NCBI GenBank assembly: GCA_965262425.1
Contig: OZ253536.1
Coordinates: 4,944,412-5,008,411 of the forward strand
Source: Terriglobia bacterium
Lineage (GTDB): Bacteria > Acidobacteriota > Terriglobia > 20CM-2-55-15
Reading direction: 5' to 3'
Length of the DNA: 64,000 bases
In this document: piece by piece, positions 43,228 to 64,000 of the stretch
Layout: each line of letters starts with the position of its first letter
Numbering within the stretch: position 1 is the first letter of the stretch
Program-made: the position numbers and the translations under genes
The notes under the pieces: model-generated
The model's input: only the letters and a program-made list of their open reading frames with translations
Told to the model about the DNA's origin: nothing
Database searches by the model: none

Positions 43228-43369
43228 GCCGCCGTTCAAAACGTTTTCAGCATAAGCACTGGCAGTAGAAAAGAGCGACCCGATTGCAGGCCTGAATCCC
43301 GTCGACGGTCCCCTTTTCTTGCTGGAAAGCTGACGAACAGTTATTGAAGTAAAAGGAGTATGGAGAAAC

Positions 43370-43579
43370 ATGTCTAAAGAAACAGGCAAGGTAAAGTGGT
43401 TCAACAACAAAAAGGGTTTCGGTTTCATCGAGCGGGCCAGCGGTGGAGATGTGTTCGTCCACTACTCGGCTATTGAAACCGACGGCTACAGAACCTTGAA
43501 AGAGGGGGAAGACGTCGAGTTCACCATCACCGAAGGACCAAAAGGGTTTCAGGCTGAAAATGTCGCGCGAGTAGAATAG
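43370..43579 (+). CDS. cspA: cold-shock protein, CspA family
   Basis: The sequence [15 protein letters not shown]...VFVHYSAI carries RNP1 and RNP2 motifs. Confidence 0.9.
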
Positions 43580-43600
43580 CGGGACGTTCAAGACATTCGA

Positions 43601-43636
43601 AAAGACCCTGCGGAGCGCTCCGCAGGGTCTTTTTCA
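43601..43636 (+). terminator. rho-independent terminator
   Basis: The hairpin GACCCTGCGGAGCGCTCCGCAGGGTC is followed by TTTTT. Confidence 0.8.
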
Positions 43637-43703
43637 TTTGTGGCCGATCACTTACTATGCCTGTTCATAGGCCGCGATCGACTGGCAATTGTTCAAATCC
43701 TAG

Positions 43704-44507: not shown

Positions 44508-44941
44508 CGCTATCCTACCAACATTGTCTATACATCCTGAACTCGCGAATTGGGCTACCAGTTTAGCTCACGGGATCTCCCGCCAGATGATCTGAACCCG
44601 GAATCGTGCCGGTTAGATGGGAACGGTGGGCGGTTGGGATGGCGGACTGTCGGTTGTGCCCACCTGTTTGTCCTCGGACTCCGCGGCACCGATAATTCCA
44701 CGTAAGGGTCAGCTCAAGAATAACTTCACAGAATTGGCGCCCAGATTTGCGTCAGATTCGGCGATTGAGCAGAACCGGAGGAATAGCCCTGCTACTTCGA
44801 GGAATCTGCGATTGAGGAGCGGCCGAAGATGGCGCGAAGATGGCGCGAAGATGGAATGCCAAAACGTGAAGTTGTTCTTGAGCGGGCCCTAAGTCCTTGA
44901 ACAGAAAGAACGAGTCATGACAGTCGCGTTATAAAGGTGCG

Positions 44942-47281
44942 ATGTCGCGGCTCTACAGCCTTCGGCCCGAGCTCGAGTTCTCCACACAGACCTACCAGGG
45001 CAAACCCTACACCGTCGTCAAGGATCCGGTGACGACACGCTATTTCCGGTTCAGTGCGACACAGGCCGCCATCATGGAGCTGGCCCGGGAGCCGATCGAC
45101 ATCGAGTCTCTGGGGAGCGCGATCTCGGCTCAACTGGGCGGGTCGGTCCCGCAGGCCACGCTCGAGGGGTTTCTGGAATCGCTTGAGGAAAAGCACCTCC
45201 TCGATACCGCGGACGTCAAAGAAAAAATCGCCGACTACCTTGAGCGTAAGCCCAAGGAGGATCGGAACATTCTGTATCTCCGCCTTTTCTCTATGGATCC
45301 GGAGAAGGTGTTTGATTTCCTGCTGCCCAAAATCGCCTGGTGCTTTACGCCCGGGTTCCACGTCTTCGCGATCCTGTCGATCATCACGGGTTTCACGTTG
45401 ACCTATCTGCACGGAAACGAGTTGACCGGCCATGTTCTGAAGCTGCTGAACCTGTACGGCCTGCTATTGATCTGGCTGGTCGTGGCCTCGGTCGTCATGA
45501 TGCACGAGTTCGCGCACGGCTTGACCTGCCGTCACTTCGGGGGGGAGGTCCACGAGCTGGGTTTCATGCTGCTCTACTTCCAGCCGGCATTCTATTGCGA
45601 TGTGAGCGATGCCTGGATGTTTCCGACCCGACGCGAGCGGATGTGGGTGACTTTCGCCGGAGGATATTTTCAGCTCGTGCTGTGGGGCGTGGGGACCGTC
45701 GTCTGGAGGATCACGGCGCCGGACACCCTGATCAACCAGGTCGCGTTGATCGTCATCCTTTTTGCGGGACTGCAGACACTGTTCAACTTCAACCCACTGA
45801 TCAAACTCGACGGCTACTACATGCTCAGCGATTACCTGGAGATTCCCAATCTCCGGGCTAAATCGTTCAAGGCCCTTCGGGCGTGGATCGCGGGGAAGAA
45901 AGACGAGCCGCTGCTCGCATCGGCCCAAAAGCGGGCGTTGCTGACGTTCGGTACAATTTCGCTGACCTTTTCGACAATGCTGCTGTCTTTGATTTACGCT
46001 AACATCTATATTCTTCTGACGTACTACTTCGCCTTCGCAGGCTTTGTCGGATTCTTGGTGTTCGCGCGTTTTACGATGAATAAGACAGCATCCGAGCCGG
46101 TTGCCGGAATCAAGTCGATGATTTCGCGCGCCACGTTAAAGAAGTACCGGAACCTGGGCATCGGGTTGGCCCTGGTGCTCATCTCGATCCTGTTCCACTG
46201 GGAACTCAAGATCACAGCCGATCTGCGCGTCCTTCCCCGGCAGGAATCGATCGTCCGATCCGAGACGGCAGGTACGATAGCCGAGGTCCTGGTTCGCGAA
46301 GGTAGCCACGTGAAGAAGGGCGACGTTGTCGCGCGGCTGTACGACTTCGACAAGGAGAGGACACTGTCGGCTATAAAGGGTGAACTGGGTCAGCTGCGCG
46401 TCGGCCCTCGCCCCGAAGAGGTGGACAGCGCAGAACAACTCGTCGGTACAAAGCGCGTGGAACTGTCCAACGTCCGCCGGAACATCCAATACCGGAACCA
46501 ACTCTAGCAAACCCTGGCGCGAAGGCGGACCGAGTTGCAGCTTTCTGAAATCGAATTCAGGCGAACAAGGGACCTGTTCGAAGAAGACCTCGGTGCCCGG
46601 ATTGACATGGAGAAAGCGGAAACCACGGTGGAGATTTATCGGAATGCGGTAGGTGAAACCGAGGCTTCCATCCAGATGCTCGCCGAGCAGAACGACCGCG
46701 AAGAAGATTTGAAGGAGCAGGAGCTTGCAGAAGCCGAAAGCGCACTCACGCTTGTGCTGGCCGGCTTCAGGACGGAAGACATCCAGCAGAGGGAAGCCGA
46801 GGTCGACATGCTGGAGGAACAGCAGCGGATTCTGGAGAAGGAACTCGCCAAGGCCGACATCCGGGCGCCGATTACCGGGACTGTCGTGACGCCTTTCGTT
46901 CAGAGAATCCTGAACCAATACCTGGTGGCAGGCGACGAAGTCTGCAGGATCGTGGACATGGACACGGTGCAGATTGAAATGATGGTCCCGGAAAAGGAAA
47001 TGGCCGACGTCAAACCGGCTTACCCCATCTTGATGAAGGTCCGCAGCTACCCCACCGATGAATTCGAAGGCCGGGTCGACTTTATCGCACCCGTTGCGGA
47101 AACGGTCTTCAATCAGCGCTTCATAAAAATCCGGACCGAAGTTTCGAATGAGGAGGGAATGCTGAAACCCGAAATGACCGGTGTGGCTAAAATTCACGCT
47201 GGACAACGCCGGATCATCTCCCTGATGACCCGCCGCATCATCCGATGGGTGCGAATCGAATACTGGGATCTTCTGCCGTAG
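44942..47281 (+). pseudogene. peptidase M50-like membrane domain fused to HlyD-family periplasmic adaptor; single frame interrupted by in-frame TAG at 46505
   Basis: HEFAHGLTCRHFGG (HExxH) sits in a polytopic region, followed by biotin-lipoyl and coiled-coil HlyD-like domains. ORF 44942..46507 and ORF 46535..47281 are in the same frame, separated only by an amber codon. Confidence 0.55.
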
Positions 47282-47439
47282 AGTCCACGTCGGCGAACCG
47301 CACTCGCGGGCGACCCTCTTCACGCCAAATCACAGACCGCAAGAATTCATGATTACCGCACCGAGCGCGATTCGCGTAATTAGTGTATTTTTTGTAATCC
47401 TGTGCTGCTCTTGCTGTATTGAAGGCTAAGCAACGCCGT

Positions 47440-47540
47440 TGTAAGGGGCAAATCCGTCGAAAGGCGGAGACGCAAAGCCACAAGACTACGGCTCCGGATC
47501 GAACCCGGAGTCATGTCGGTTGGGCTGCCAATGGATTAGG
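47440..47540 (+). ncRNA. c-di-GMP-I (GEMM) riboswitch-like element, copy 1
   Basis: GGGCAAATCCGTCGAAAGGCGGAGACGCAAAGCCAC...CTCCGGATCGAACCCGGAG...GGGCTGCC carries the GGCAAA-GNRA hairpin-GACGCAAAGCC core conserved in GEMM aptamers (cf. V. cholerae Vc2). Confidence 0.7.
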
Positions 47541-47599
47541 ACGTGGCAGCAATCACGGCATGGAAGCCTTCTGCCCTCCTTGACCGAATACAGTTCCTT

Positions 47600-47715
47600 T
47601 GACAAAAGCAAACCCGCCGAAAGGCGGAGACGCAAAGCTTCGAGACTAACGCTTCAGGCTCGTTCCCGAACGTCCTGGGAGCTACGTTCGTCGGGCTGCC
47701 AAGAGGTTCAACTGG
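47600..47715 (+). ncRNA. c-di-GMP-I (GEMM) riboswitch-like element, copy 2 (tandem)
   Basis: AGCAAACCCGCCGAAAGGCGGAGACGCAAAGCTTCGAGACTAACG...GGGCTGCC. The P1 stem shows a compensatory T>C change relative to copy 1 (CCGTC/GGCGG vs CCGCC/GGCGG). Confidence 0.7.
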
Positions 47716-47878
47716 CCTCGGGCAGCCTTTGTTGGTTCTGCAACGAAAAACGAACTGGAGGTAGCCACATGTACGGTGTGATCTGGGTGTAAGCCCGCGC
47801 TGAATTTCGCGACGAACTTGCGCGGCGGCGCCTGTCGTTCCGCAAAATCAAACTCCTTAACCCCTGGAGAATGAGAAA

Positions 47879-47998
47879 TGACTGAGAACAATGTTGTCCT
47901 GACTGAACTGGAAATCGAGGTTGAAGAACTGGAACAGAAGATTGCTCCGAGTGGTTCACTGGCCGTTGACAAGTAGGCCGCCAATCAATCGAAAGTAG
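47879..47998 (+). CDS. small ORF (39 aa) between riboswitches and HD-GYP gene
   Basis: The protein MTENNVVLTELEIEVEELEQKLLRVVHWPLTSRPPINRK is preceded by GGAGAATGAGAA and lies in an AT-richer region. It is speculative. Confidence 0.25.
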
Positions 47999-48054
47999 TA
48001 GACTGCAGGCTTGAGGGCGGGGGGAAGGAAAAACCTCCCGCTCTGACGCCGTCT

Positions 48055-50526
48055 TTGGAGGTCTTTTCGGTGAACTGGCACCAGCTTCATTTTCGGGCAA
48101 AGGCGTATCTCATCGGTTCCTACGTCTTCGGTGCTGTCTTCGCCTTCGTCTCCCTTACAGCAGCTCACAATCGCTTTGTCTATCCGTGGGTCCTGCTGAC
48201 TCTGGCATCTATTGTTGTAGCCACAATCAACGTTCGTCTCCCGATGACCGGACATCGGGTCGTTATTTCAATGGGGGATGTATTCACGATCCTCGCGCTT
48301 CTTCAGTTCGGTCCCGGACCCGCCCTGGTAATGTATTGGGGCAACCTCGTCAGTGCCCATACGACCGACCAGATCAAGAAATACGGTTGGGACTTCCTCC
48401 GACAAACATCACCCTACAAATACGCTTTCAATTTCGCTATCTGCGCCTCGTCGATCTGGGCAATGAATCTGGCGCTTGTTCTTGTGGATCGCCTGGGTTT
48501 GTCCGAATCGGTAACGTTGGCTACGAGCCTCGCGGCTCTTGCAGGGACATGGTTCATTGTGAACACGGTCCCTCTGTCTCTCACGATCGCGCTTCTGAAT
48601 CACCAGTCTTTCTGGAAGACCTGGTCCGACGGTCTCGTCCTGTACCTGCTCAATTTTTTCGGTTCCGCAGCAGCAGCGGGACTGATGTTCAAGTTCTACG
48701 AAGAGGCCGGGTCTTCAGTCTTTCTATTCGCACTGCCGATCGTCGCGGTCATCTATCAGCTCTACCTGTTTTACATCGACAAGTTCGAGCATGCGCAGGC
48801 CCACATCGCGGAGTTGAACAAGCTCTACCTTCAAACCGTCGAGGCCCTCGCGTCGGCCGTCGATGCCAAGGACCGCTACACCCACGGTCACGTCCGTCGG
48901 GTCCAGGTGTACGCGGTCGAGTTGGCAAAGCGGATGGGTATCGAAGACGCCAACGAGTTGATGGCGATTCGCTCCGGCGCCCTGCTGCACGACATCGGAA
49001 AGATCGCGATACCTGAATACATTCTGAACAAGCCAACAGTCCTCACCGAATCTGAATTCGAGAAGATGAAGAGCCATCCTGCAGTCGGCGCCGTCATGCT
49101 GCAAGGCATCGAGTTTCCATTTCCGGTGGAGCCACTCGTGAAGTCCCACCACGAACGCTGGGACGGAAGGGGCTATCCGGAGGGTTTGAAGGGTGATGAG
49201 ATCCCGCTGAGTGCGCGTATTCTGTCGCTCGTCGATTGCTATGACGCTATGACGACGGACCGACCGTACAGGTCGCCGATGGCTCGTGATCAATTGATCG
49301 AATTCTTCCTGCGGGAGTCGGGCGGGGCTTACGACCCGGCCGTGGTCGATGCGTTCGTCGAACACATAGAACTGCTCGAAGCGGAAGGGGCCAAAATAGA
49401 AGTCGCGCCGTCTGACATTTGGGGTGGCGAAACCGCAGGCTCTGCGGGAACGGAAAACGTCCGTCCACTTGAAAAGGTTCAACCCACGCTGACCTACAGC
49501 AAAGCCATGGACGTGAACGCGCTCGCGCAGGCGGAGTTGTATTCTCTGTTCGAATTCGTGCGTGCTGCGAACTGCCTGCGAGTCGACGACGTTCTCGCTT
49601 TCGTCGGCATCAAGCTGGAAAGGCTGATTCGCTTCGATGCCGCGGTCTTCTACCTCGCGGACCTCGATCGCGGGATCGTGACACCGGGCCATGTTCTGGG
49701 TAAGGGAAAGCGGGTGATCAAGAATGTGACATTGCCCCTGGATCAGAAACTAAGCGGTTGGGTGGCTGCTAACAACCAGGCCCTGAGCAACCTGCCACCC
49801 TTTCCCGACTTCCTGAATGTCGAAGATCCCAAGCCGGCATTCGAGATCTCGAGTATCGTGCCAATGAATCATCGCGGCGTCGTTATCGGCTCTCTCGCTT
49901 TGTATCGCGAAGAAAAGACGAAGTTCACCGACCTGGAATTCCGTCATCTTGAAATCGTTGCAGGCCAGACGGCTGCCGCGCTGAACCGGGCGCGTGAGCA
50001 GGAGAGTTCGCAGACAGCCCTTTTTGACGAACTGACCCAACTGCCGAACGGTTATCAGCTCTACCTGATGTTTGACCAGGTTGCCATGGACGCCCAACGT
50101 TACGACTACCCGCTCTCGCTCTTGGCCTTCCGGTTGGAAAGTCTGGAGGACGTCACTCGTCGATACGGGCACCTGAGCGCTGCTGAGATGGTCCGGTTCA
50201 TCGCACGATATCTAAAGGACGAGGTTCGTGACACGGACATTCTGGTCCGTTATTCAAATGACCAGTTTCTAACGCTACATCCAAAGATGAGCCGGGATCA
50301 GGCCGAAGTGTTGAAGTCACGTATCCAGAATGAATTGGACCAGCACCGATTTCCGATCCGGCACGGTGTGGACGTATCCCCGCGGTTGTCCATTGGCATA
50401 GCTGAATTTCACGAAGAAGGCTCAAAACTGGAAGACCTGTTGTCGATTGCAGAATGGCGGCTGACCGAAGACGAAAAGTCGCGCTCCGTCGCACGCCGAA
50501 CCCTTCCATTTCCCTCCCAGCATTAA
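48055..50526 (+). CDS. 7TM receptor-HD-GYP phosphodiesterase-GAF-degenerate GGDEF protein
   Basis: It has an HD motif (HGHVRRV...LLHDIGK) and a GYP motif (HHERWDGRGYP). The C-terminal GGDEF-like domain has SNDQF in place of GGDEF, but an intact RxxD I-site (RDTD) 5 residues upstream. The start is uncertain (TTG 48055 or GTG 48070). Confidence 0.85.
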   Translation: MEVFSVNWHQLHFRAKAYLIGSYVFGAVFAFVSLTAAHNRFVYPWVLLTLASIVVATINVRLPMTGHRVVISMGDVFTILALLQFGPGPALVMYWGNLVSAHTTDQIKKYGWDFLRQTSPYKYAFNFAICASSIWAMNLALVLVDRLGLSESVTLATSLAALAGTWFIVNTVPLSLTIALLNHQSFWKTWSDGLVLYLLNFFGSAAAAGLMFKFYEEAGSSVFLFALPIVAVIYQLYLFYIDKFEHAQAHIAELNKLYLQTVEALASAVDAKDRYTHGHVRRVQVYAVELAKRMGIEDANELMAIRSGALLHDIGKIAIPEYILNKPTVLTESEFEKMKSHPAVGAVMLQGIEFPFPVEPLVKSHHERWDGRGYPEGLKGDEIPLSARILSLVDCYDAMTTDRPYRSPMARDQLIEFFLRESGGAYDPAVVDAFVEHIELLEAEGAKIEVAPSDIWGGETAGSAGTENVRPLEKVQPTLTYSKAMDVNALAQAELYSLFEFVRAANCLRVDDVLAFVGIKLERLIRFDAAVFYLADLDRGIVTPGHVLGKGKRVIKNVTLPLDQKLSGWVAANNQALSNLPPFPDFLNVEDPKPAFEISSIVPMNHRGVVIGSLALYREEKTKFTDLEFRHLEIVAGQTAAALNRAREQESSQTALFDELTQLPNGYQLYLMFDQVAMDAQRYDYPLSLLAFRLESLEDVTRRYGHLSAAEMVRFIARYLKDEVRDTDILVRYSNDQFLTLHPKMSRDQAEVLKSRIQNELDQHRFPIRHGVDVSPRLSIGIAEFHEEGSKLEDLLSIAEWRLTEDEKSRSVARRTLPFPSQH

Positions 50527-50717
50527 GAGAAAAGTCGCGGTTTTTGCGTTCTTTTGTGTTGCTCAGAATGCGATAATTGCGCCCCATTACATGCTAAGAA
50601 ACTGATTCCCCAGTGCTTGAGACTGGCAATTAAAATGCGCGACTTATATCGCAGTGTTTTGAGAATCCTAGCGTCCGTAAGACAATTCCGGCGCAAACAA
50701 CCACCGGAGGTCACTCG

Positions 50718-52116
50718 ATGCAGCGGTTTCTGACGAGACGTTTCGAAATAGAGCGAGTCTTGCGGCGGTCGAAATACGTCACCTCGTTTGTGGGTCACGA
50801 CCGCTGGACCGACCGCCGTGAAGTATTCGTCAAGTGCATTCCAGGCAGGGTCTGTCAGATATCGGCGGGATTTGAGAAGCGGCTCGCATGGTATCGAAGC
50901 ATTGCACATCCTCGGATGGGAAATGTTGTTGAAGCCGGATTCACGCCGGGAAAGGACTTCTACTACGTCCGGGACTACTATCCTGCATCGGCAAAAGGTT
51001 TTCTCGACGGGGCGGACCCAAGCACAATCGCCTCAAGATTGGTTGGGGCCTGCCTGTTGCTACAGACCCACGGAATCGTTCACGGAAGGATCAAACCCTC
51101 AAACGTTCTGAACCAGGACGATGGATCGCTTCGACTGGTCGACGGCGGTCTTCCCGGACGGCCTGTCGAAACCTTCAGCGTCGAGGATGTAAGGTCGAAT
51201 GCGCCTGAGATACTTGCAGGTGGGCGACCGTCGCTGGAGGCCGATCTCTACTCGCTCGGCGCCGTGCTGTACCGTCTGTTCGCTAGACGGGATTTGTTTG
51301 AAGATTCCAACCTGGAACTCCTCAAACACAAATATCTCCATGCGTTGCCAGTGCCTCTGTCCGAATTGTGCGATGAATCTCGTGCGCTATCGGAGATCGT
51401 TTCGGGTCTGCTCGACAAAGAGCCCGCTTCTCGATTGGCAGCGTTCCCATCTCTGAGCGACCTTCTCAACGTCCGTTACTCTGCCCCGACGCAAGCACCA
51501 TTTATCGGTCGAGTGTCGGAATTCCAAAAGGCACTGGACATCCTGTCGGTGAAAGGCAACAGAACGCAGGTCGTGTCTGTGGAAGGAGAGGCGGGAATTG
51601 GGAAGACGCGCTTCGTTGCCGAGTTGGCCTTCCTTCACCAATTGACCGCTGGTCGGTTTCTGGTGGGACGATGTTATGAACGTGAGAACCGCGCATACGA
51701 ACCAATCCTGCAGTTGGTTGGCCAACGGCTGAAATGGCGAGACCAGAAGCTCGACAATTGGATCAGGAATGACGGGGGTCGCTTTGGACCTTCCTTGAAA
51801 CGCCTCTTCCCCGACTTTGACGATGTCCTGTCCGACGTCCCGCATGAAGACCGCCCCATCAGTGCCGGGAAAATGGTTTCAGACCTGGCAGGGACCGTGA
51901 TCTCACTTGCCGACCTGTCGCCTACCACGATCGTTCTTGAGGACGTGCACTGGATCGATGAGGGAAGCCTTCGGATCCTGGAACAGATCTATTTTAGGGC
52001 GGGAGAGTCCAGGCTCAGCCTGGTATTGACTTTGAGGAGGGGGATGGCCCAACCAGCAATGCTCCGCTTTCTGGAGGAACCGACCCACCCAGGAATTGAT
52101 CTTCATCGAATCCCTC
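50718..52116 (+). pseudogene. giant regulator fragment 1: Ser/Thr pseudokinase domain + STAND/AAA NTPase N-terminal part (interrupted by IS630 copy A)
   Basis: It has a kinase-like fold with VFVKCIP, HGRIKPSN (catalytic Asp missing), DGG (for DFG) and APE. The NTPase motif GEAGIGKTRFV ... LEDVHWID follows. The frame continues across the IS excision. Confidence 0.8.
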
Positions 52117-53271
52117 TAGTGGTCCCCGTCAAACAGACTGTAACTTATCGAGCTTCTTTCGGGCACGTTGAACTTTTTCAAGAATATCGGAAGCCGTTGC
52201 GGTCCAAATGAAGGGCTTCGGGTTCTGATTGTGACCCCCGACATATTCCTCCACGGCCTGGATTAGCTCAGGAACCGAATGGAAAACCCCGCGCCGAAGC
52301 AGTTGTTCGGAAAGATCCCGGAAGAAGCGTTCGACCATGTTCAGCCAGGATGCACTGGTCGGTGTGAAGTGCACATGAAAGCGCGTGTTGCGCTTCAACC
52401 AGTTGACGACTTTCTGATGTTTGTGCGTGGCGTAGTTGTCGCAAATGATATGGATCTGTTTGTCTTTCGGCACGGAACGTTTGATCTGATTGAGAAACCG
52501 GATCCATTCCTGATGACGATGCTTCGGCATACAGGTCCCGATAATCGAGCCGTCCAGCGTATTGAGCGCGGCGAACATCGTGGTCGTCCCGTTGCGTTTG
52601 TAGTCGTGGGTGAGGGTGCCGCACCGCCCCTTCTTCAGAGGTAACCCGGGTTGCGTGCGGTCCAGGGCCTGCATCTGGCTCTTCTCATCGCAGGACAAAA
52701 CAATGGCGTTTTCCGGAGGGTTCAGATACAAACCGACCACATCCTCCAACTTCTCGACAAATTGTTTGTCGTTGGAAAGTTTGAAGGTGCGTGCCAGATG
52801 AGGCTTCAAGCCATGAGCCCGCCAGATTCTCCCTACCGTGGACTCGCTGACGCCGGTTGCCCTGGCCATCAAGGACCGGCTCCAGTGCGTGGCGTTCGGA
52901 GGCTTCCCTTCGACCGTCTTCTTCACGATCCGGGCCCGCTTCCGGCGGCCGATCGAGGGAATCCGTCCACTGCGGGAAGCGTCCTTTTCGATTCCCCCGA
53001 GGCCATCTTCAACGAAACGATCGCGCCAACGTCCGGCCTTTTGACGAGTGATGTCCAACTTGGCAGCGATCTCCTGATTGTCCAGACCCCCGGCGGCCAG
53101 CAAGACAATTCGAGATCGTTCCGCCAACCGGACCGCCACACTGCGGCTTCGGCTCAGTCGCTCCAGTTCCTTCCGCACAGGAATGTCCAATTTAATCGTC
53201 GGTGCTCTCCTCATATATACTCAGACGTAGGAAATCTGAATAAGTTACATTAACTGTGACGGATTACACTA
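52117..53271 (-). mobile_element. IS630-family element copy A (1155 bp, TA target duplication)
   Basis: It has imperfect ~32-bp TIRs, TAGTGGTCCCCGTCA... and ...TGACGGATTACACTA. It encodes the 361-aa DDE transposase 52129..53214. Confidence 0.9.
52129..53214 (-). CDS. IS630-family transposase
   Basis: The 361-aa protein has an N-terminal HTH and a C-terminal DDE domain. It is identical in length to copy B. Confidence 0.9.
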   Translation of the reverse strand: MRRAPTIKLDIPVRKELERLSRSRSVAVRLAERSRIVLLAAGGLDNQEIAAKLDITRQKAGRWRDRFVEDGLGGIEKDASRSGRIPSIGRRKRARIVKKTVEGKPPNATHWSRSLMARATGVSESTVGRIWRAHGLKPHLARTFKLSNDKQFVEKLEDVVGLYLNPPENAIVLSCDEKSQMQALDRTQPGLPLKKGRCGTLTHDYKRNGTTTMFAALNTLDGSIIGTCMPKHRHQEWIRFLNQIKRSVPKDKQIHIICDNYATHKHQKVVNWLKRNTRFHVHFTPTSASWLNMVERFFRDLSEQLLRRGVFHSVPELIQAVEEYVGGHNQNPKPFIWTATASDILEKVQRARKKLDKLQSV

Positions 53272-55895
53272 GCGGCTCTGGACGACACATCCACCTTCGA
53301 CCTCGCACAGAAGCTTACGGACGACGGTCGGCGGGTTCCCTGGATTACTGCCAACGCAGGCGGAAACCCTCTTTTTCTTGAAAAATGTGCCCGGTATCAG
53401 GCTAGGAATCTCAGTAGCCTGCCGGGGCGGGTGGAGGACATTCTCCTTCAAAAGGTTGGAAGCCTCAAGTCTGCAGACAAGCAGGTCGCGGAATTCCTTT
53501 CCTTGTTCCCAAAGCCGTTACCTGCTGCTCTCGGGAAGAAGGTGCTCGCCTCATTACCCGGTCAAGCGGTCGAGAGCTTGGATCGACTCATCGAGTCGAG
53601 TATTCTCTGCGGAAACCACGACGAGATAGCGTTTCGACACGACGGTATTCGTGAAGCAATCTATCGCAACTTGACTCGGAACCGGCGGAAGCACTACCAC
53701 CGAATTGTTTTCGATTTGCTGTCGAAAGAAGGCTCGGACAAGGAAGCCGCCGGATACCACGCGGCGGGCGCCGGAATGACAGAGGAGGCCGCGAGAGCCT
53801 ACGAGCATGCGGCGTTCGGGAACAGGTACTTGACTAACTATCGAACCGGCGCAGAGCTCTTCGAACTTTCTCGAAATCTATGGACTCAGCTGAGGAAACG
53901 GGTCGCCCCAAAGTCACAGATCGAACATGCACGGTGCCTGCTCGGGGTCGGTAGATACAGGAAGGCACGCAATCTGCTCGACGAGCTACTCTCTGATCCG
54001 GTCGGACTTGAACCTCAAGACCGCTCACGAATATACACGCTGCTGGCAAATCTCGCAGAGTCTGCATTGGAGTCGATCGCATTGCTTCAAAAGGCGCTTG
54101 ACAGTTGCCCTCCGACTGCCGGGGTTTCTGGTAGAGAGGGATTGGTCCCTCTCGCTCAAGCGTATGCGATCGCCGGAAAGGTGCAGGAGGCCTACAGTCA
54201 CTTGAGGTTGGTTGAACGAAACCTCCAAGAGACACCACCGGAACCGGTTCATGCCGTGTGGCTGTCTGCGATCAAAGGAAACATATTTATTTCGCTATGT
54301 GCCTATAAGAAGGCACTCAAGGTCCTACACTCCGGTGTCGAACGGAGCGACCTGGAACCGATCGTGCTCAATAACGTGGCCGTGTGCCTGGAGCACGTGG
54401 GCAAACTAAGCGAGGCCTGTGTTCATCAAGCAAAGGTTCTTGAGATTGTTCGTAGCACGGGTCTCATGGCAGCCGAGCTTCAGTCACTGGCGAATCTGGG
54501 GGCGTTTGAAACAAAAAGCGGGAATCTCCAGGAAGCCGCCAAATGGTTCCGAGAAGCTGGGGATTTCTGTAATGCGATGAATTTCTATCGCGAGGGTGAT
54601 CGGACCAACCTGCCATTGCTGGACGCCGATCAAGCTTTCCTGTGCATGGAAATCGGGGAGTACGCCAGAGCACGAAGACTCTTAGGTTCCGCCGGGAGAA
54701 TGCTCAAACGGGATACGGCAAGTCAGAAGGCCATTTGGGTGGCGCTTCGAAAATGCGAGATCTACGAACGAACTGGCGAGTCGACGCTGGCGAAACGAGC
54801 CTGGGCGTCGGTTCGAAACGCGGAACTTTTCGGCACGGACTTCTTCAGTGTGGAACGGACACTTCTGGCATCGAGTAACGGAAAGGATTCACTAAACGAT
54901 CGCGTCGGTGGCCTCCTCGACGCTCTCACCTTAACGGAGTCCACAGGAACCACCTATCAACGTTGCCGGGTCCTCATGGAACTGGCAACTAACTTGCTCC
55001 TTGTAGGCAAGACTGACGACGCCGGAAAGCGGCTTGCAGAGGCGGACAGGCTTAGTCGAAAGTATGGATACCAGCCATTCAGAGCGAAGATCCTGCTCAT
55101 GCGAGGGATGTTAACGAGCGGCGCCCAGAAGAAGGAGGCCTATTTCACGGAATCCTATCAGCTCGCGTCGGAGATGGGCTTACGTGAGATCTCTGCTGAG
55201 TCTGCGTTTCGACTCGGCGAACACCAACTGGGGTTAGCGAATCTGTTGAACGCACGCGAGTACCTGTCACGAAGCGTGGATACCATAAACAATCTGGCCA
55301 CCGAAATACCGCTCCGGAACCGAAACCGCTATCTCAATGTGACGTGGAGAAGGCAAGTGATCTCGATTCTCGCCGACGTTGATCTGAAACTTCCTGGGTC
55401 CAACGTGACGCTCGACAACCGGGCCCCGGACCGTCGAGATGACAATCCTTTCTTCAAGGCCATCTACGAGACCACGATTTCCCTGGGCGCCGCCGCAACT
55501 ACCGACGACTGTGTTCGGACGTTGCACCTGGCAATTCGGCGAACTCTGAAATGCAAGGTCGTTCTGATGCTTACCGCGGACGGGAAGGTCGAGTTATACC
55601 CCGTGGGCCTTGACGACAATCTTTCCGGGAAGATTTCAAGACTGTACGCGAACGAGAAAAACCAACCGTTCTTCGGTAATCAGGAGGTCGAAGGAGCCGC
55701 AGGACAGCAAAATCATACGACCGCCTGGATTCCTCTCTCGTCGTCTGGAAGCCAATTCGGTGGCATTTACGTCGACCTCGGCCAACGAAAATTTCGTGAA
55801 GTTGAAATTGAGTTTCTGACGATGCTCGGTGTTATTGGCGGCAATGCCCTGTACGCAATCATTCATGCCGAACAAAAGCCGCAACGGACTCGAGC
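53272..55895 (+). pseudogene. giant regulator fragment 2: remainder of STAND NTPase, TPR/helical array, GAF-like domain
   Basis: It continues in frame from fragment 1 (…HRIPL-AALDDTSTFDLAQKL…). It has TPR-like repeats and a GAF-like C-terminal part, then is cut by IS630 copy B at 55896. Confidence 0.8.
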
Positions 55896-57050
55896 TAGTG
55901 GTCCCCGTCAAACAGACTGTAACTTATCGAGCTTCTTTCGGGCACGTTGAACTTTTTCAAGAATATCGGAAGCCGTTGCGGTCCAAATGAAGGGCTTCGG
56001 GTTCTGATTGTGACCCCCGACATATTCCTCCACGGCCTGGATTAGCTCAGGAACCGAATGGAAAACCCCGCGCCGAAGCCGTTGTTCGGAAAGATCCCGG
56101 AAGAAGCGTTCGACCATGTTCAGCCAGGATGCACTGGTCGGTGTGAAGTGCACATGAAAGCGCGTGTTGCGCTTCAACCAGTTGACGACTTTCTGATGTT
56201 TGTGCGTGGCGTAGTTGTCGCAAATGATATGGATCTGTTTGTCTTTCGGCACGGAACGTTTGATCTGATTGAGAAACCGGATCCATTCCTGATGACGATG
56301 CTTCGGCATACAGGTCCCGATAATCGAGCCGTCCAGCGTATTGAGCGCGGCGAACATCGTGGTCGTCCCGTTGCGTTTGTAGTCGTGGGTGAGGGTGCCG
56401 CACCGCCCCTTCTTCAGAGGTAACCCGGGTTGCGTGCGGTCCAGGGCCTGCATCTGGCTCTTCTCATCGCAGGACAAAACAATGGCGTTTTCCGGAGGGT
56501 TCAGATACAAACCGACCACATCCTCCAACTTCTCGACAAATTGTTTGTCGTTGGAAAGTTTGAAGGTGCGTGCCAGATGAGGCTTCAAGCCATGAGCCCG
56601 CCAGATTCTCCCTACCGTGGACTCGCTGACGCCGGTTGCCCTGGCCATCAAGGACCGGCTCCAGTGCGTGGCGTTCGGAGGCTTCCCTTCGACCGTCTTC
56701 TTCACGATCCGGGCCCGCTTCCGGCGGCCGATCGAGGGAATCCGTCCACTGCGGGAAGCGTCCTTTTCGATTCCCCCGAGGCCATCTTCAACGAAACGAT
56801 CGCGCCAACGTCCGGCCTTTTGACGAGTGATGTCCAACTTGGCAGCGATCTCCTGATTGTCCAGACCCCCGGCGGCCAGCAAGACAATTCGAGATCGTTC
56901 CGCCAACCGGACCGCCACACTGCGGCTTCGGCTCAGTCGCTCCAGTTCCTTCCGCACAGGAATGTCCAATTTAATCGTCGGTGCTCTCCTCATATATACT
57001 CAGACGTAGGAAAGCTGAATAAGTTACATTAACTGTGACGGACTACACTA
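55896..57050 (-). mobile_element. IS630-family element copy B (1155 bp, TA target duplication)
   Basis: It is near-identical to copy A and encodes transposase 55908..56993. Confidence 0.9.
55908..56993 (-). CDS. IS630-family transposase
   Basis: It is identical or near-identical to the copy A transposase. Confidence 0.9.
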   Translation of the reverse strand: MRRAPTIKLDIPVRKELERLSRSRSVAVRLAERSRIVLLAAGGLDNQEIAAKLDITRQKAGRWRDRFVEDGLGGIEKDASRSGRIPSIGRRKRARIVKKTVEGKPPNATHWSRSLMARATGVSESTVGRIWRAHGLKPHLARTFKLSNDKQFVEKLEDVVGLYLNPPENAIVLSCDEKSQMQALDRTQPGLPLKKGRCGTLTHDYKRNGTTTMFAALNTLDGSIIGTCMPKHRHQEWIRFLNQIKRSVPKDKQIHIICDNYATHKHQKVVNWLKRNTRFHVHFTPTSASWLNMVERFFRDLSEQRLRRGVFHSVPELIQAVEEYVGGHNQNPKPFIWTATASDILEKVQRARKKLDKLQSV

Positions 57051-58096
57051 GAACGTCTTATTCGGGCATCGTCGGTCGTTCCCGCGAAATCGAAGAGGTG
57101 TGCGCTCAGATTGAGATTGCGGCGGGAAGTCCCGCGACGGTCCTCATTGAGGGGGAGAGCGGAACGGGCAAGGAGCTCGTGGCCCGGGCGATTCATCAGA
57201 ACAGCGATCGTCGCGGCGCGCCGTTCGTCACGGTGGATTGTGGCGCCATTCCGGAGACTCTGATCGAAAGCGAACTCTTCGGCATTCGGCGAGGATCGTT
57301 CACCGGGGCGACGGCGGATCGGGCCGGGCTCATAGAATCCGCCAACCGGGGAACGTTGTTTCTGGACGAAATTTCCAACACGAGCCCGGCATTGCAGGCG
57401 AAGCTTCTCCGGGTTCTGCAGGAAAGAGAGGTCCGCAGGGTAGGGGACACAAAAGGCCGCACTGTGGACATTCGGCTAATCGCCGCCACGAACGCCAACC
57501 TCGACACCCTTGTCGAGACAGGTACCTTCCGGCAGGATCTACTCTTCCGCCTCAAGGTCCTGCACATTCAGGTTCCTCCCCTCCGCAGCCGAAAACAGGA
57601 CATCCCGGACATCGCCCTCTCGTTTCTGGAGCGGCTCAACGAGACCAACAAGACCAAGAAGCGATTTGGGCGGGGGATCCTGGACACTTTGGCGAGGGGG
57701 AACTACGCTGGTAATATTCGAGAGCTCCAGAATCTGATCGAAAGGGCATATTTCTCGACAACAGTCGGGAACGTGATTAAGACGGTCGAGGTTGAATCCG
57801 GAGCCAGGCACTGGCAAAGCTCCGACGAGGTGCAATCCTGGTTCAAAGACCTGACCGCAGGTCGAAAGGATTTCTGGACTCTGATACACGCACGCTACAA
57901 GAAACGAGACATATCGCGCGAAAATGTCATCGCCCTGATGGACCTGGGCTTGAGAGCGACTCGTGGATCCTACATGTCCGTCGCCTCGCTGTTTCACCTT
58001 GATCGCCGCGAGTATCGCCGTTTCATGGACTTCCTCAGGCGGAATGGGTGTCAGCCAGACTTTCGGGAATACCGTGGGCGGGGTGGGTTAGAGTAG
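57051..58096 (+). pseudogene. giant regulator fragment 3: sigma54-interaction AAA+ domain and C-terminal HTH
   Basis: It has [21 protein letters not shown] and GSFTGA motifs. It continues in frame from fragment 2 after copy B is removed (…EQKPQRTRA-RTSYSGIVGRSREIEEV…). Confidence 0.8.
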
Positions 58097-58318
58097 CTTA
58101 CTATGATAGTCTGTAGCCTATAAAGTCACATTACATGAATGTATTCGTCGGTGATTCGAGAAGGATGGACAAGATGACCCGCTACCAAGCCAAATCTCCT
58201 CACAGTTTGTGGTAGCTTAATCTATACATAATACATTCACTTCGTGGCCTGGGATGGCCACACACACAAGCGGTTCTTGCATTGGTGGCTTGGAGTGTCG
58301 TTATGGTCGAGTCAGTAG

Positions 58319-59479
58319 GTGGTGGGTTTGTCCCAGGGTGAGGCGACAACCAGGATGTCTGGGGCCTCGGTTCGCACGATAGAAGGTCGTTGGGCTTTCG
58401 TTCCGGACCCGCTGCCCCCGTCCGGGCTTGAGTACGGCTTGATGCTCGATGCTATTTCGGACGCGGAACATGCGCTGGGCAAGTTGGCAGGGGTGGGTCG
58501 GACGCTCGCGAATCCCTATCTCGTTGCGGGGCCGCTGCTGTTGGGAGAGGCCATCGCATCGAGCCGGCTGGATGGATTCTCCGCACCCACACAAGATGCC
58601 GTGATTCAAGGAGTGACTCGAAAGAGACCACCTGCGGGTGAGGTGGCAGCACGGGACGTCGTGAATTATGCAAAGGCCATGGCGCAGGGTCTCGGGCGCC
58701 TGGAGGGTTCACACGTAGATATGAGGTTCATCTCGGAACTCCATTCCACCTTGCTGGAGGGAAACGGGCCGCGAAGCGAATCCGGCAAGTTCCGCAGCGG
58801 CCCCGGGAAAGATCCAAATCCTGGCCAAGGCCCTTTACACCAACGGTTTGGTCCTCCGTCCGGGCCGGAAATGAAGGACTGCCTGAGGCGGCTGGAGCAT
58901 TTCATCCGAACAGGCCCGGTTCCACTCCTCGTCAAGATTGCCCTCATTCACTATCAGTTTGAAACTATCCATCCGTTCGCGGTGGGAAGCGGCCGCATAG
59001 GACGGATGTTGATCCCTTTGCTTCTGGGCAAAGCCGGCAGGCAACCCCAACCCATGTACTATATGAGTAGTTATTTGATGCGTCATCAGTCCCAGTATGC
59101 CAATCTGCTCCTTCAAGTGAGGCTCCGGGGGGCTTGGCGGGATTGGATCACGTTCTTCCTGCGAGGCATCGAACGGCAGTCCGCCGAAACCCTGATTCGG
59201 ATCGACAAGCTCCTGGCCCTTCGAAACGATTGGCTCGTGCGTGCAAAGCCAGGGCGATCATCGGCCTCACCACATAAGCTCATTGACGCTCTTTTCAGGT
59301 TTCCGGCGACCACCATCGGCCAGGCCGGGAGGCTCCTTGGCGTCACGCCGCGGGGCGCGAAGCTGAACATCGAAAAACTCGTCGAGCAGGGTATACTGCA
59401 CGAAGCGACCGGACGACGTCGCAACCGGGTCTTCACAGCCACAGAGATTCTCGACATCATCGAGCCTGCCGGCCCATGA
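58319..59479 (+). CDS. Fic/DOC family protein with non-canonical active-site motif
   Basis: HPFAVGSGRIGR replaces the canonical HPFx(D/E)GNGRxxR. It has a C-terminal winged-HTH-like tail. The likely start is the ATG near 58355. Confidence 0.75.
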   Translation: MVGLSQGEATTRMSGASVRTIEGRWAFVPDPLPPSGLEYGLMLDAISDAEHALGKLAGVGRTLANPYLVAGPLLLGEAIASSRLDGFSAPTQDAVIQGVTRKRPPAGEVAARDVVNYAKAMAQGLGRLEGSHVDMRFISELHSTLLEGNGPRSESGKFRSGPGKDPNPGQGPLHQRFGPPSGPEMKDCLRRLEHFIRTGPVPLLVKIALIHYQFETIHPFAVGSGRIGRMLIPLLLGKAGRQPQPMYYMSSYLMRHQSQYANLLLQVRLRGAWRDWITFFLRGIERQSAETLIRIDKLLALRNDWLVRAKPGRSSASPHKLIDALFRFPATTIGQAGRLLGVTPRGAKLNIEKLVEQGILHEATGRRRNRVFTATEILDIIEPAGP

Positions 59480-60144
59480 ACCAGTTGGTCAGAATCAATC
59501 ACGTCAGAAAGGTCTATGAGTCCGCGAGCGAGCCTGTCGTTGCGCTCAAAGACGTTTCGCTTGAGATCGAGAGGGGCCGGTTTGTCACGCTCATGGGTCC
59601 CAGCGGATGTGGCAAGTCCACTCTGCTGCACATCATCGGCGCCATGGACAGACCGACCGAGGGTGAAGCCTGGCTCGAAGGCCATGCCGTCCACAGCCTC
59701 GGTGAGGAAGAGTTGACCGCGATTCGCCGGACACGGGTGGGCTTCGTTTTTCAATTCTTCTATCTGCTCCCCACACTCACCCTCGAAGAAAACGTCGCGC
59801 TCCCGCTGCTGCTTGCCCATGGCAGGAAGGTGGATCACGAACGGGTGCGGTCGTTGATCGAGTCCGTCGGCCTATCGGGCCGGCGAGACGCCTTGCCGAC
59901 ACAGCTTTCGGGTGGGGAGCTGCAACGGGGAGCGCTGGCAAGGGCCATCGTTCACGCCCCGCCGCTCGTCGTCGCCGACGAGCCCACCGGCAACCTGGAT
60001 TCCGACAACGGCAAGATCATCCTGGAACTGCTTCAGAAACTGACGGCCACCGGGACGGCCGTGGTCATGGCGACCCACAGCGATGCGGCCGCCGCGTACT
60101 CGGATCGAACGCTCCGCCTGAGAGACGGCGGACTGGTCGGATGA
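59476..60144 (+). CDS. ABC transporter ATP-binding protein (LolD/MacB/AttE-like)
   Basis: It has Walker A GPSGCGKST, the signature LSGGELQR and Walker B VVADEPT. Confidence 0.9.
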   Translation: MNQLVRINHVRKVYESASEPVVALKDVSLEIERGRFVTLMGPSGCGKSTLLHIIGAMDRPTEGEAWLEGHAVHSLGEEELTAIRRTRVGFVFQFFYLLPTLTLEENVALPLLLAHGRKVDHERVRSLIESVGLSGRRDALPTQLSGGELQRGALARAIVHAPPLVVADEPTGNLDSDNGKIILELLQKLTATGTAVVMATHSDAAAAYSDRTLRLRDGGLVG

Positions 60145-62747
60145 GAGGCTTCGGTCTACTCTTCCATCGCTACATCCTTCGCGACCTGGCGCGAAACCCG
60201 ATCCGAACGTTGCTGACGATAACCGGCGTATCTTTGGGCATTGCAGTCGTCGTGGGGGTCCAACTGGCAAACGACCGCGCGATCGGCTCGTTTAACGATA
60301 GCCTGAGGATTCTAGGCGGAGGGGCCGACCTCCAGATCACGGCCAACGGGCTGCAACTCGACGAACAATTGATCGGCGAGCTCGACTGGGTCTGGGATAT
60401 CGGCGCATTGACCGCCATCGTCGAAGGGCGCGTCGACCTGGACGACTTGCCAAACCCACTGGGAAGGGAATCCATTCAAATCTTCGGTGTCGATCTGCTA
60501 TCGGATGCACCGTTCCGTCGATACATGACCGCCGAAGGGGGCAACCTCGGTCTGGACATCACACGTGAAGAATACTTGGATCTGCTGATCCGCCCGGACA
60601 CGATCATCATCCCATCCAGCCTGGCCGAAGACCTGGGAGTGGGCATTGGCGACACCGCCCGCTTCCTCGTGTCCAACCGCTGGCGGGAGCTTGTCGTCGG
60701 GGCGATCCTGGCCGACGAAGGCGTGGCGCGCGCGTTCGGGGGCAAAATCGCATTCATGGACATCGCGGCCGCCCAACTCACGCTGAACAAGATCGGATGG
60801 ATCGACCGCATCGAAGTCCTGCTCGACGACCCGAACTTGGTGGATGCGGTCGCCGAGCGCATTCGCGTCCAGCTTCCCGAATCCGTGATCGTCTATCGGC
60901 CCGAGGACACAGCCGAGGACAATGAAAAGATGATTCGGGCGTTCCGGTACAACCTGACGGCGTTGAGCTACATCTCGCTCATCGTCGGCATGATCTTGAT
61001 CTACAACACGCTGAACATCGCCGTGGTCCGAAGACGAACTGAAATCGGCGCTCTTCGCACACTGGGAACCTCGCGTAGAACGATCAGGTGGATGTTCCTG
61101 ATCGAGGCGACGGCGTTCGGCGTCGTCGGTGCGGCGCTTGGTATATGGCTCGGTGAACTTCTGGCGACGGCTTCCGGCGCGCTTGTCTCCCGAACGATAG
61201 CGGCACTCTACACCGGCGCCGCGGGGGGAGGGACGGTAGATTCACAGGCCGACCCTGTCCTCTACCTGGAGATGCTTTTGCTGGGTGGCGTTCTGGCCGG
61301 CGTTTCCGGAACCGGGCCGGCCTTGAGGGCCACCCAGGTCTCGCCGGTCGAGGCTCTCCGGGAAAACGTCATGGGCAGGGCCAGCGGACGGAAGCTGCGC
61401 TTTCAGGTTGCCGGCGGTGGAGCGACAATACTGCTGGGCGCCATCCTCAGCTTCGGTCCCGCAATCGACGGGTTTCCGTTCCTGGGCTACGCAGCCGGCG
61501 TTTCGTTCATCGCAGGATTCGGGTTGCTTTCGCCCCTGCTGGTTCGCGGCCTGCTCAAGCTGATTCGGATACCGTTCATCCGGCTGCTTCCGGTCGAGGG
61601 CCGGCTCGCCATTCAAACGATCGAAGGAAGTCTCGGCCGGGTCGTCGTCGCCGTGATGTCGCTGGCGATAGCCGTCGCCATGCTGATCAGCGTGGCCATC
61701 ATGGTGGCCAGCTTTCGCGACACGGTTATCGTCTGGATCGACCAGACACTCAAAGGGGATCTTTATCTGCGACCCGCTTCGTTCGGAAGCAACGGCGGAA
61801 GCAACGTCCTGGAGGGAAAGACGCTGGAGGTGCTCGATACGATTCCTGCCATTGCCGCCATCGATCGTTTTCGAGCGATGGTAATCGACTATGACGGCTT
61901 TCCGGCATTTCTGGCCGCCGGGGAATTCCGAACCGTCGCCACGCACAGCAGTTTGCTCTTCATGGATGGCCGGACGACACCCGACGTGGCTGCCGGACTG
62001 ATCGGCGCGAATCGCGTCGTTGTTTCAGAGCCTTTCGCGGTCCGCCACAGCATCGGGTCCGGCGACACAGTCCGGCTCCCCACGCCGGCCGGCATGGAAC
62101 CCTTCGTGGTCGAGGCGGTCTTCTACGACTATTCCAGCGAAGGTGGCTTGATCGTAATGGACCGCGGAACCTACCTGGAGAAGTTCAAGGACCCCGACGT
62201 GAGCAACGTGGCCATATACCTCCAACCGGGCGCCGACCCAGCGGCAACCCGGGCCAGAATCGCCGAACTGCTTCCAGACACCGAGCTTCGAATCGCGACC
62301 AACGGCGAGTTACGTGCCCAGGTTCTCCGTGTGTTCGATCAGACGTTCGAGATTACGTATGCACTCGAGGTGATCGCGATGGCGGTGGCGGTTCTTGGGA
62401 TCGCGAACACACTGGCGGCGCTGGTCATCGAGCGCCGGCCCGAAATAGCGATGCTGCGTTTTGTCGGCGCGGCGCGCACACAAATCCGTCGCGTCGTGAT
62501 GTTGGAGTCGGGTTTGATCGGAATGCTGGGCGGTGCAATCGGTCTCGCACTAGGCATTCTCCTGTCCGTGCTTCTGATCTACGTAATCAACTATCAGTCG
62601 TTCGGGTGGACGATCCAGTTTACGATGCCCTTCGGATTCCTCGTGCAGTCCCTGTTGTTCATCCTGATCTCGACGATCGTCGCAGGACTTTATCCTGCGT
62701 CGCTCGCTCTCAGGATGGATCCGATTCAGGGCATTCGGGCAGAGTGA
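60141..62747 (+). CDS. ABC transporter permease with two FtsX-like modules (MacB/AttFG-like)
   Basis: The 868-aa protein has two 4-TM FtsX repeats with large periplasmic domains. It overlaps the ATPase gene by 4 nt. Confidence 0.9.
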   Translation: MRGFGLLFHRYILRDLARNPIRTLLTITGVSLGIAVVVGVQLANDRAIGSFNDSLRILGGGADLQITANGLQLDEQLIGELDWVWDIGALTAIVEGRVDLDDLPNPLGRESIQIFGVDLLSDAPFRRYMTAEGGNLGLDITREEYLDLLIRPDTIIIPSSLAEDLGVGIGDTARFLVSNRWRELVVGAILADEGVARAFGGKIAFMDIAAAQLTLNKIGWIDRIEVLLDDPNLVDAVAERIRVQLPESVIVYRPEDTAEDNEKMIRAFRYNLTALSYISLIVGMILIYNTLNIAVVRRRTEIGALRTLGTSRRTIRWMFLIEATAFGVVGAALGIWLGELLATASGALVSRTIAALYTGAAGGGTVDSQADPVLYLEMLLLGGVLAGVSGTGPALRATQVSPVEALRENVMGRASGRKLRFQVAGGGATILLGAILSFGPAIDGFPFLGYAAGVSFIAGFGLLSPLLVRGLLKLIRIPFIRLLPVEGRLAIQTIEGSLGRVVVAVMSLAIAVAMLISVAIMVASFRDTVIVWIDQTLKGDLYLRPASFGSNGGSNVLEGKTLEVLDTIPAIAAIDRFRAMVIDYDGFPAFLAAGEFRTVATHSSLLFMDGRTTPDVAAGLIGANRVVVSEPFAVRHSIGSGDTVRLPTPAGMEPFVVEAVFYDYSSEGGLIVMDRGTYLEKFKDPDVSNVAIYLQPGADPAATRARIAELLPDTELRIATNGELRAQVLRVFDQTFEITYALEVIAMAVAVLGIANTLAALVIERRPEIAMLRFVGAARTQIRRVVMLESGLIGMLGGAIGLALGILLSVLLIYVINYQSFGWTIQFTMPFGFLVQSLLFILISTIVAGLYPASLALRMDPIQGIRAE

Positions 62748-62750
62748 AAT

Positions 62751-63869: not shown

Positions 63870-63904
63870 TGCCGAACGGCACTGTACCGGAACGGATTTC
63901 GCTA

Positions 63905-64000
63905 ATGGATCTCCACCCGCAAACCAACCTTGTCCCCATCACCGTTGTCGCGGCCGTTATCCACCAAGAGGGCAGGGTCCTGGTTACCCGTCGCTTCGAA
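63905..64000 (+). CDS. NUDIX hydrolase, 3'-truncated by window end
   Basis: MDLHPQTNLVPITVVAAVIHQEGRVLVTRRFE resembles MutT-type N-termini. Confidence 0.45.
   Translation, partial: MDLHPQTNLVPITVVAAVIHQEGRVLVTRRFE

Follow-up and report, generated by a model that had tools for sequence, protein, structure and literature searches.

A sigma54 activator gene with a pseudokinase-STAND front, split by two IS630-family insertions in a Terriglobia bacterium

We analysed a 64,000-nt stretch of contig OZ253536.1 from a Terriglobia bacterium (GCA_965262425.1), referred to as the window, to which all coordinates refer. Three plus-strand open reading frames (ORFs) are found at 50718..52211 (497 aa), 53431..55950 (839 aa) and 57035..58096 (353 aa), separated by two minus-strand ORFs of 361 aa each. 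An initial annotation made from the DNA alone had proposed that the three ORFs are a single gene split by two IS630-family insertion sequences (IS) at TA dinucleotides. Both the in-frame join of the three pieces and the presence of intact alleles in the same species bear this out. The region is very probably a recently inactivated gene, which in its intact form codes for a one-component sigma54 activator of 1690 aa from a conserved acidobacterial family.

Computational excision of 52119..53271 and 55898..57050 (1153 nt each, comprising the IS and one TA) indeed yields a single frame of 5073 nt, with 1690 codons and a single terminal stop, as had been put forward; cutting 1155 nt per copy instead leads to loss of the frame. 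The first junction falls exactly after codon 467, and the second within codon 1343. The gene is thereby divided into three plus-strand segments. Segment A (50718..52118) corresponds to codons 1-467 and encodes a pseudokinase (~aa 9-250) and the P-loop core of a STAND NTPase (aa 261-425), with its ORF extending 30 codons into the IS. Segment B (53272..55897) corresponds to codons 468-1342 and the first base of codon 1343, and encodes the remainder of the STAND module (including GGNPLF, aa 497-502), a helical/TPR array and a GAF domain (aa ~1193-1335, nt 55447-55875). Segment C (57051..58096) runs from the remainder of codon 1343 to codon 1690 and the stop, and encodes a sigma54 AAA+ module (aa 1349-1600, nt 57068-57823) followed by a C-terminal helical domain (aa 1600-1686, nt 57821-58081). 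The GTG start of the corresponding ORF is located 16 nt within the IS end.

Four loci in publicly available assemblies of this species carry the uninterrupted 5073-nt gene: L027 (a circular 5.84-Mb contig with 22x coverage), L028 (GCA_047514405.1), L029 (a Logan assembly) and L030 (a 6.35-Mb contig). Both target sites are empty in these loci (...CCCTCTAGCGGC... and ...CTCGAGCTAGAACG...), the alleles differ from the reconstruction at 5-7 of the 5073 nt, and the flanking genes are the same. Two of the proteins derived from intact loci (P0269 and P0278) are 1690 aa long, and the protein cluster containing the window fragments also includes three uninterrupted 1690-aa proteins. Products of 436, 585, 690 and 843 aa in the cluster were considered as further independent disruptions, but they seem to end at frameshifts in contigs of low coverage and were not counted. 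When uninterrupted orthologues were searched for, as had been suggested, these were found to be continuous across both IS sites, with the invariant residues L467 and L470 flanking the first.

A fifth contig, L001 (4x coverage, 99.8% identical to window 40720..64000), has the second site occupied by the IS and the first site empty. As L001 carries only copy 2, the insertion in the GAF/AAA+ linker occurred first, and that in the NTPase later. Three allelic states (intact, one IS and two IS) coexist in public data for a single species, most recovered assemblies of which retain the intact gene. This polymorphism within the population supports the recent inactivation that had been suspected.

The two insertions are contained in a 1157-nt direct repeat (52116..53272 and 55895..57051) with CTAG at both ends. 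Each repeat has the arrangement C-TA-(1151-bp IS)-TA-G, whereas the empty sites in L001, L027 and L030 read CTAG, demonstrating duplication of the TA within the target. Copy 1, the younger, occupies 52119..53269 on the minus strand (1151 bp, flanking TA at 52117-52118 and 53270-53271, transposase gene at 52129..53214, minus strand) and is positioned between the STAND P-loop core and the GGNPL motif. Its site is unoccupied in L001, L027 and L030. Copy 2, the older, occupies 55898..57048 on the minus strand (1151 bp, flanking TA at 55896-55897 and 57049-57050, transposase gene at 55908..56993, minus strand) and is positioned in the linker that connects the last GAF helix (ending at ~aa 1335) to the AAA+ module (starting at aa 1349). 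It is found with identical sequence in L001, and is absent from L027-L030. Hence an element entered the linker CTAG first, and a slightly different copy then entered the STAND CTAG, each duplicating its TA. While the IS630 family and the TA target were correctly assigned at the outset, the copies are neither 1155 bp long nor identical: they differ at three positions (52301/56080, 53235/57014 and 53264/57043), one of which alters the transposase (L305R).

The transposase scores 270.5 bits against the NCBIfam IS630 transposase model NF033545 (cutoff 100), and Pfam identifies DDE_3, HTH_32, HTH_29 and HTH_23. The terminal inverted repeats are imperfect (GTGGTCCCCGTCA... versus GTGTAATCCGTCA...), with 25 of the first 40 positions in agreement. 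With one DDE_3 transposase carrying an N-terminal helix-turn-helix (HTH), a length of ~1.15 kb, imperfect inverted repeats and TA duplication, the element resembles IS630 (IS630/Tc1/mariner superfamily) and is an ordinary member of that family, with no difference that matters. A third IS630-type copy (~97% identical) is present at 12511-12965 and 15884-16595, split by an IS21-family element at 12966-15883 that contains an IstA-like gene (13156-14859) and IstB (14558-15484). Further transposase genes are located at 7006-8199 (DDE_Tnp_1) and 19115-20026 (rve), making this an IS-dense region.

The domain order proposed for the restored protein (pseudokinase, STAND NTPase, TPR, GAF, sigma54 AAA+) is confirmed by Pfam and, in the case of the GAF domain, by a predicted fold; the motifs originally quoted are present. 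Pfam matches were obtained for Pkinase (aa 92-242), AAA_16 (aa 261-425, 84.2 bits, cutoff 32.6), TPR_12 (aa 831-896, 34.5 bits, cutoff 30.1), Sigma54_activat (PF00158, aa 1349-1516, 232.8 bits) and AAA_lid_14 (aa 1521-1600), while a TPR_MalT match remained below threshold (16.5, cutoff 45). Motif conservation was assessed in a family alignment of the reconstruction with 12 full-length homologues (13 members). The catalytic Asp of the HRD motif is absent from the kinase-like domain, which reads HGRIKPSN in the window; all 13 members have R, H, A or S at position 124 (HG[RHAS]). The Gly-rich loop GxGxxG is likewise missing, being replaced by LRRSKYVTSFVG in the window and found in no member. In these two respects the domain is degenerate as first described, but the claimed loss of DFG is only half right, as the Asp (D142) is kept in the form of DGG and is invariant. 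N129 and A162-P163-E164 are also invariant, and K39, the VAIK/beta-3 Lys, is nearly so. By the catalytic-triad definition of a bacterial kinase atlas preprint (10.1101/2025.01.12.632604), the kinase-like domain is a pseudokinase. Retention of the VAIK Lys, the catalytic-loop Asn, the DFG Asp and APE suggests a family-wide pseudokinase in which the fold is probably kept and which may bind nucleotide.

The STAND module of the window protein contains the Walker A motif GEAGIGKT and the Walker B motif VLEDVHW. GxxGxGK[TS]R occurs across the family, and most members retain hhhh[ED]D-HW, Walker B being degenerate in the most distant ones. G498 and P500 of GGNPLF, which we take to be the STAND GxP motif, are invariant. 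For the GAF region, searches of the restored protein with Pfam GAF, GAF_2 and GAF_3 gave no match at E<=0.01; the closest homologues also lack such matches, while more distant ones have them. An AlphaFold2 model of aa 1188-1342, based on 11 family sequences, was obtained with a predicted local distance difference test (pLDDT) score of 87.7. The top 28 Foldseek matches of this model in the PDB are all GAF domains (E down to 2e-5, template modelling (TM) scores of 0.6-0.7), among them those of the activators NifA (8jrc) and Nlh1 (4g3k), and a profile match to the 4mcw GAF domain was found at E=0.048. In the AAA+ module the Walker motifs GESGTGKE and LFLDE are invariant across the family. The sigma54-contact loop reads GSFTGA in the window and G[SA][FY]TGA in the family, G1424, T1427, G1428 and A1429 being invariant. 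All 13 full-length homologues obtained in our homologue search retain the AAA+ Walker A and B motifs and G[SA][FY]TGA, as well as the STAND Walker A and GGNPL motifs.

The terminal HTH of the initial annotation was not recovered: the last 87 residues of the restored protein match neither HTH_8 nor any other Pfam model, and form a helical domain instead. This is the most conserved part of the protein outside the AAA+ core (76% mean column identity), and its predicted fold is a helical bundle (pLDDT 94). Searches against the PDB yielded only noise at the sequence level and no significant match at the fold level, with the DNA-binding domains of NtrC1 and NtrC4 as well as Fis among the weak fold matches. 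A profile search with the domain retrieved 998 representatives of 50%-identity clusters, among proteins long and short alike. Ten short members were examined with Pfam, and in each of them the domain is located at the C-terminus, straight after Sigma54_activat and AAA_lid_14; these short natural activators are ~360-540 aa long. The position suggests that the C-terminal helical domain is probably an undescribed DNA-binding output.

Using the intact alleles to polarise changes, the IS-bearing lineages were found to have acquired seven nonsynonymous or nonsense substitutions versus three synonymous ones. Both lineages share E505K, which affects the second Glu of an EE pair kept in 10 of 12 full-length homologues, the adjoining E504 being nearly invariant. 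L964I, L1070F and A1163V are confined to the window allele (A1163 is nearly invariant in the family), while S883N, A1123T and W1618* are confined to L001, the last of these replacing a family-invariant Trp within the 3' fragment. This pattern is suggestive of pseudogene decay, as opposed to maintenance of a useful free-standing activator, and of three residual ORFs that are now decaying. Given the many insertion sequences and a nearby nonsense-mutated gene in the window, the simplest reading is one of ongoing IS expansion and pseudogene formation. Certain observations nevertheless weigh against inactivation, or against our account of the intact protein. The excess of replacements is based on 10 substitutions and, when the window and L001 are compared, is not statistically distinguishable from the flanking genes (10 nonsynonymous:12 synonymous). 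L001 has only 4x coverage, so that a sequencing error may account for W1618*. In the window, the ORF of the 3' fragment remains unbroken and includes the whole AAA+ core. No convincing sigma54 promoter was found before the downstream ABC operon, nor before the Fic gene, and the signalling mechanism proposed below for the intact protein derives from domain identities.

The persistence of the 3' ORF relates to an alternative already raised in the initial annotation, namely a modular decoupling by the IS that leaves a free-standing sigma54 activator. In this reading the second insertion would have made a useful protein, translated from the GTG within the IS (57035..58096) and constitutively active, with all sensory domains gone. 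The in-IS start and the intact ORF, with whole Sigma54_activat, AAA_lid_14 and C-terminal domains, are indeed present. The break lies precisely in the GAF/AAA+ linker, the short natural activators share the C-terminal domain, and transcription starting at the gene's own promoter could pass through the IS. A precedent also exists, in that certain activators of this kind are freed when their regulatory domains are removed; in NorR, for instance, the AAA+ domain is repressed by the GAF domain (PMC2941729). However, a promoter scan revealed no outward sigma70-like promoter at the right end of the IS, and no Shine-Dalgarno sequence precedes the GTG at 57035. CTAG is eight-fold rarer than expected in the window, and the gene contains just four such sites, two of which are taken by IS; the linker position of copy 2 is thus largely set by target scarcity. 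Furthermore, in L001, which bears the same insertion, the stop at W1618 removes the C-terminal domain. The lineage with the linker insertion shares E505K, with further replacements on each branch, and the intact gene prevails among the assemblies of the species. We therefore regard decoupling as improbable, and inactivation as the better explanation of the linker insertion.

It is more improbable still that the double interruption is an assembly artefact, with IS repeats misplaced into an intact gene. The IS is multicopy (three copies in the window), metagenome assemblies can misplace repeats, and other assemblies do contain intact alleles. A misassembly would not, however, give an exact TA duplication at CTAG with the frame restored to the base at both sites. 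L001, an independent contig, shows the site-2 insertion too, with an identical IS, the 497-, 839- and 353-aa products are also known from other large contigs, and the window allele has private substitutions. A genuine, recent inactivation by two successive insertions remains the preferred reading.

A sigma54-type -24/-12 element, TGGCAATTAAAATGC (GG-N10-GC), is located at 50624..50638 on the plus strand, between a GGDEF gene and the regulator gene and 94 nt upstream of the ATG of the latter. It aligns with TGGCACCGGYAGTGC, AGGCAACTCGATTGC and similar elements of orthologous loci, occurring at the same alignment columns in L002, L004, L006, L007 and L022, with a comparable spacing in L011 and L012. 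In the 150 nt preceding family genes, 5 strong matches to the element were counted where 0.105 would be expected, and these represent three independent lineages. A conserved GCGA-N6-TCGC palindrome is present just past the -12 element (50637-50652). Two further boxes lie upstream on the plus strand, AAAAGTCGCGGTTTTTGCG (50530-50548) and GCGATAATTGCGC (50570-50582), both of which are in register in six orthologous loci with proteins 42-89% identical; these are candidate enhancer (upstream activating sequence, UAS) sites. The presence of a conserved sigma54-type promoter together with the upstream boxes suggests that the regulator gene is transcribed by sigma54 polymerase and is probably autoregulated. 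The motif TGGCAC-N5-TTGC, which had been recommended as a guide to target promoters, gave six one-mismatch matches in the window versus 3.3 expected, none in a telling place.

Clustering of neighbouring genes across 25 related loci and the window (26 loci) reveals a recurrent one-strand array, consisting of genes for an M50/HlyD-like protein, an HD-GYP-GAF-GGDEF protein, the regulator, an ABC ATPase, a MacB/FtsX permease, an AttH/CrtC-like lipocalin and a small protein. In the window, Pfam identifies the HD-GYP + GAF + GGDEF protein (cyclic-di-GMP turnover) at 48055..50526, the ABC ATPase at 59476-60144, the MacB/FtsX-type permease at 60141-62747 and the AttH/CrtC-like lipocalin at 62751-63869, all on the plus strand. 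In 13 of the 26 loci the HD-GYP-GAF-GGDEF gene immediately precedes the regulator gene in the same orientation; permease and lipocalin genes follow it, again in the same orientation, in 10 loci, nine of which also have the ABC ATPase gene immediately before these two. A Fic gene (58319-59479) separates the regulator from the ABC genes in the closest relatives only. On the basis of this conservation, the cyclic-di-GMP enzyme and the MacB-type ABC transporter with its AttH-like lipocalin appear the likeliest functional partners or targets.

The neighbourhood shows some additional features. The M50/HlyD-like gene (44942-47281), which encodes 779 aa in intact sister genomes, contains a TAG stop at 46505-46507 in the window (GAG in L001), while the L001 copy is instead frameshifted by +1 near window 45691. 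A palindrome preceding the Fic gene, GTGGCC-TGGGAT-GGCCAC (58244-58261), corresponds to GTGGTC...GACCAC in L002 (OZ252023.1, a related Terriglobia chromosome), i.e. both arms are changed with the symmetry kept; this could be a protein-binding site or a hairpin. Within L002 1-2500, the homologue of window 6458-8375 (transposase gene) abuts the homologue of 47463 onward, so that ~39 kb of the window (8375-47463) are not at that position, reflecting either a rearrangement or an IS-bounded island. A syntenic orthologue of the regulator (85-89% aa identity, no IS) is found in L002 near 6165, where a 1-nt deletion (GAGAAC to GAAAC) causes a frameshift at ~aa 325; this represents either another inactivation, independent of the first, or an error in the long-read assembly. 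Unrelated to the regulator, ORF 8867-11500 specifies another Ser/Thr kinase, of canonical appearance (Pkinase E=1e-50), fused to PD40/beta-propeller repeats.

The front half of the restored protein resembles regulators of the MalT/AfsR/PknK type, which share the AAA_16/STAND P-loop NTPase with Walker A and B motifs, a GxP-type motif and a subsequent helical/TPR arm; PknK-like proteins additionally have an N-terminal Hanks-type kinase. These regulators act with sigma70 polymerase through a DNA-binding output domain of the LuxR or SARP type, whereas the window protein has a second ATPase, the sigma54 AAA+ ring. The rear half resembles NifA, NorR, FhlA and Aquifex Nlh1, in which a GAF domain directly precedes the sigma54 AAA+ module; indeed, the AAA+ core of the window protein scores best against the nifA model. 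These activators are, however, ~500-700 aa in size, lack the ~1180-aa pseudokinase-STAND-TPR front and end in HTH_8. The kinase-AAA_16-TPR front is also shared with the kinase/cyclase fusions of TOMM systems (TIGR03903; partial match at aa 257-441), but these have a nucleotide cyclase output, and the window protein reaches 55 bits versus a cutoff of 706. The same order of kinase, AAA_16, TPR, GAF, Sigma54_activat and AAA lid is found, in 1600-1850 aa, in proteins that bear the database name 'sigma 54-interacting transcriptional regulator', such as P0020 (Candidatus Polarisedimenticolia), P0029 (Kofleriaceae) and P0070 (Gemmatimonadales). Most of these relatives keep the HxD Asp, DFG and Gly loop and end in a Fis-type HTH_8, in contrast to the HG[RAHS] motif, missing Gly loop and different C-terminal domain of the window family.

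The architecture, which had been put forward as unrecognised, is therefore not new to the databases. A homologue search returned 13 intact full-length proteins (1626-1711 aa, 33-52% identity over 98-100% of the query), and such homologues are common in Acidobacteriota, including those of soil. The same search returned ~45 more distant proteins for which Pkinase and Sigma54_activat are both listed; nearly all of them also have AAA_16, and the majority GAF and HTH_8. The distant relatives come from several phyla, including the three groups named above, and some are already labelled, either as quoted (NCBI) or as 'transcriptional regulator with GAF, ATPase, and Fis domain' (JGI). Kinase-less versions (AAA_16-TPR-Sigma54_activat-HTH_8) were also found, one of them from Candidatus Binatia. 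The HxD Asp, DFG and Gly-rich loop are retained in six of eight distant relatives inspected, the exceptions being P0016 (HGK, no Gly loop) and P0029 (partly degenerate). As the distant relatives mostly possess the catalytic motifs, the acidobacterial clade looks like a derived pseudokinase branch. A scan for the C-terminal domain in one genome per GTDB species identified 25 loci, 24 of which are from Acidobacteriota (Terriglobia, Solibacteraceae and Candidatus Sulfopaludibacter) and one of which is a weak match from Verrucomicrobiae; the gene is in a single frame in at least nine of the 25. Myxobacterial genome papers are said to mention kinase-activator fusions. A published description of the architecture was not found in the full-text literature on kinase-sigma54 activator fusions, the Sorangium and myxobacterial kinome, pseudokinase atlases and STAND-sigma54 combinations, with two likely sources outside the coverage, and the kinase atlas preprint (10.1101/2025.01.12.632604) covers pseudokinase families and describes no sigma54 fusion. 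The window copy is a broken member of a known, uncharacterised sigma54 activator family.

For the intact protein, the domain composition allows a signalling route to be proposed. The N-terminal pseudokinase and the TPR array would receive the signal, and the STAND NTPase would pass from monomer to oligomer upon nucleotide exchange. This switch, together with the GAF domain, may release or assemble the AAA+ ring, which would in turn remodel sigma54-RNA polymerase at promoters recognised via the C-terminal helical domain. We tentatively suggest that the intact family could represent an unstudied logic, in which two distinct ATPases that oligomerise, a STAND switch and a sigma54 AAA+ ring, are combined in one polypeptide, a non-catalytic kinase serves as sensor or scaffold, an undescribed domain replaces the Fis-type DNA-binding domain, and the regulator drives its own expression through a sigma54 promoter and has a cyclic-di-GMP enzyme and a MacB-type transporter as partners.

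With respect to annotation, the locus should be entered as a single pseudogene disrupted by IS rather than as three separate genes. Within one acidobacterial species it records a dated and polymorphic series, from the intact gene to one and then two IS. The family to which it belongs is a large, widespread and apparently unstudied group of sigma54 activators, for which the derived pseudokinase, the unannotated C-terminal domain, the conserved neighbours and the likely self-activating promoter provide handles. The intact alleles, available in the circular 5.84-Mb genome in ERZ25074053 and in GCA_047514405.1, are suited to studying how a STAND module might gate sigma54 transcription.

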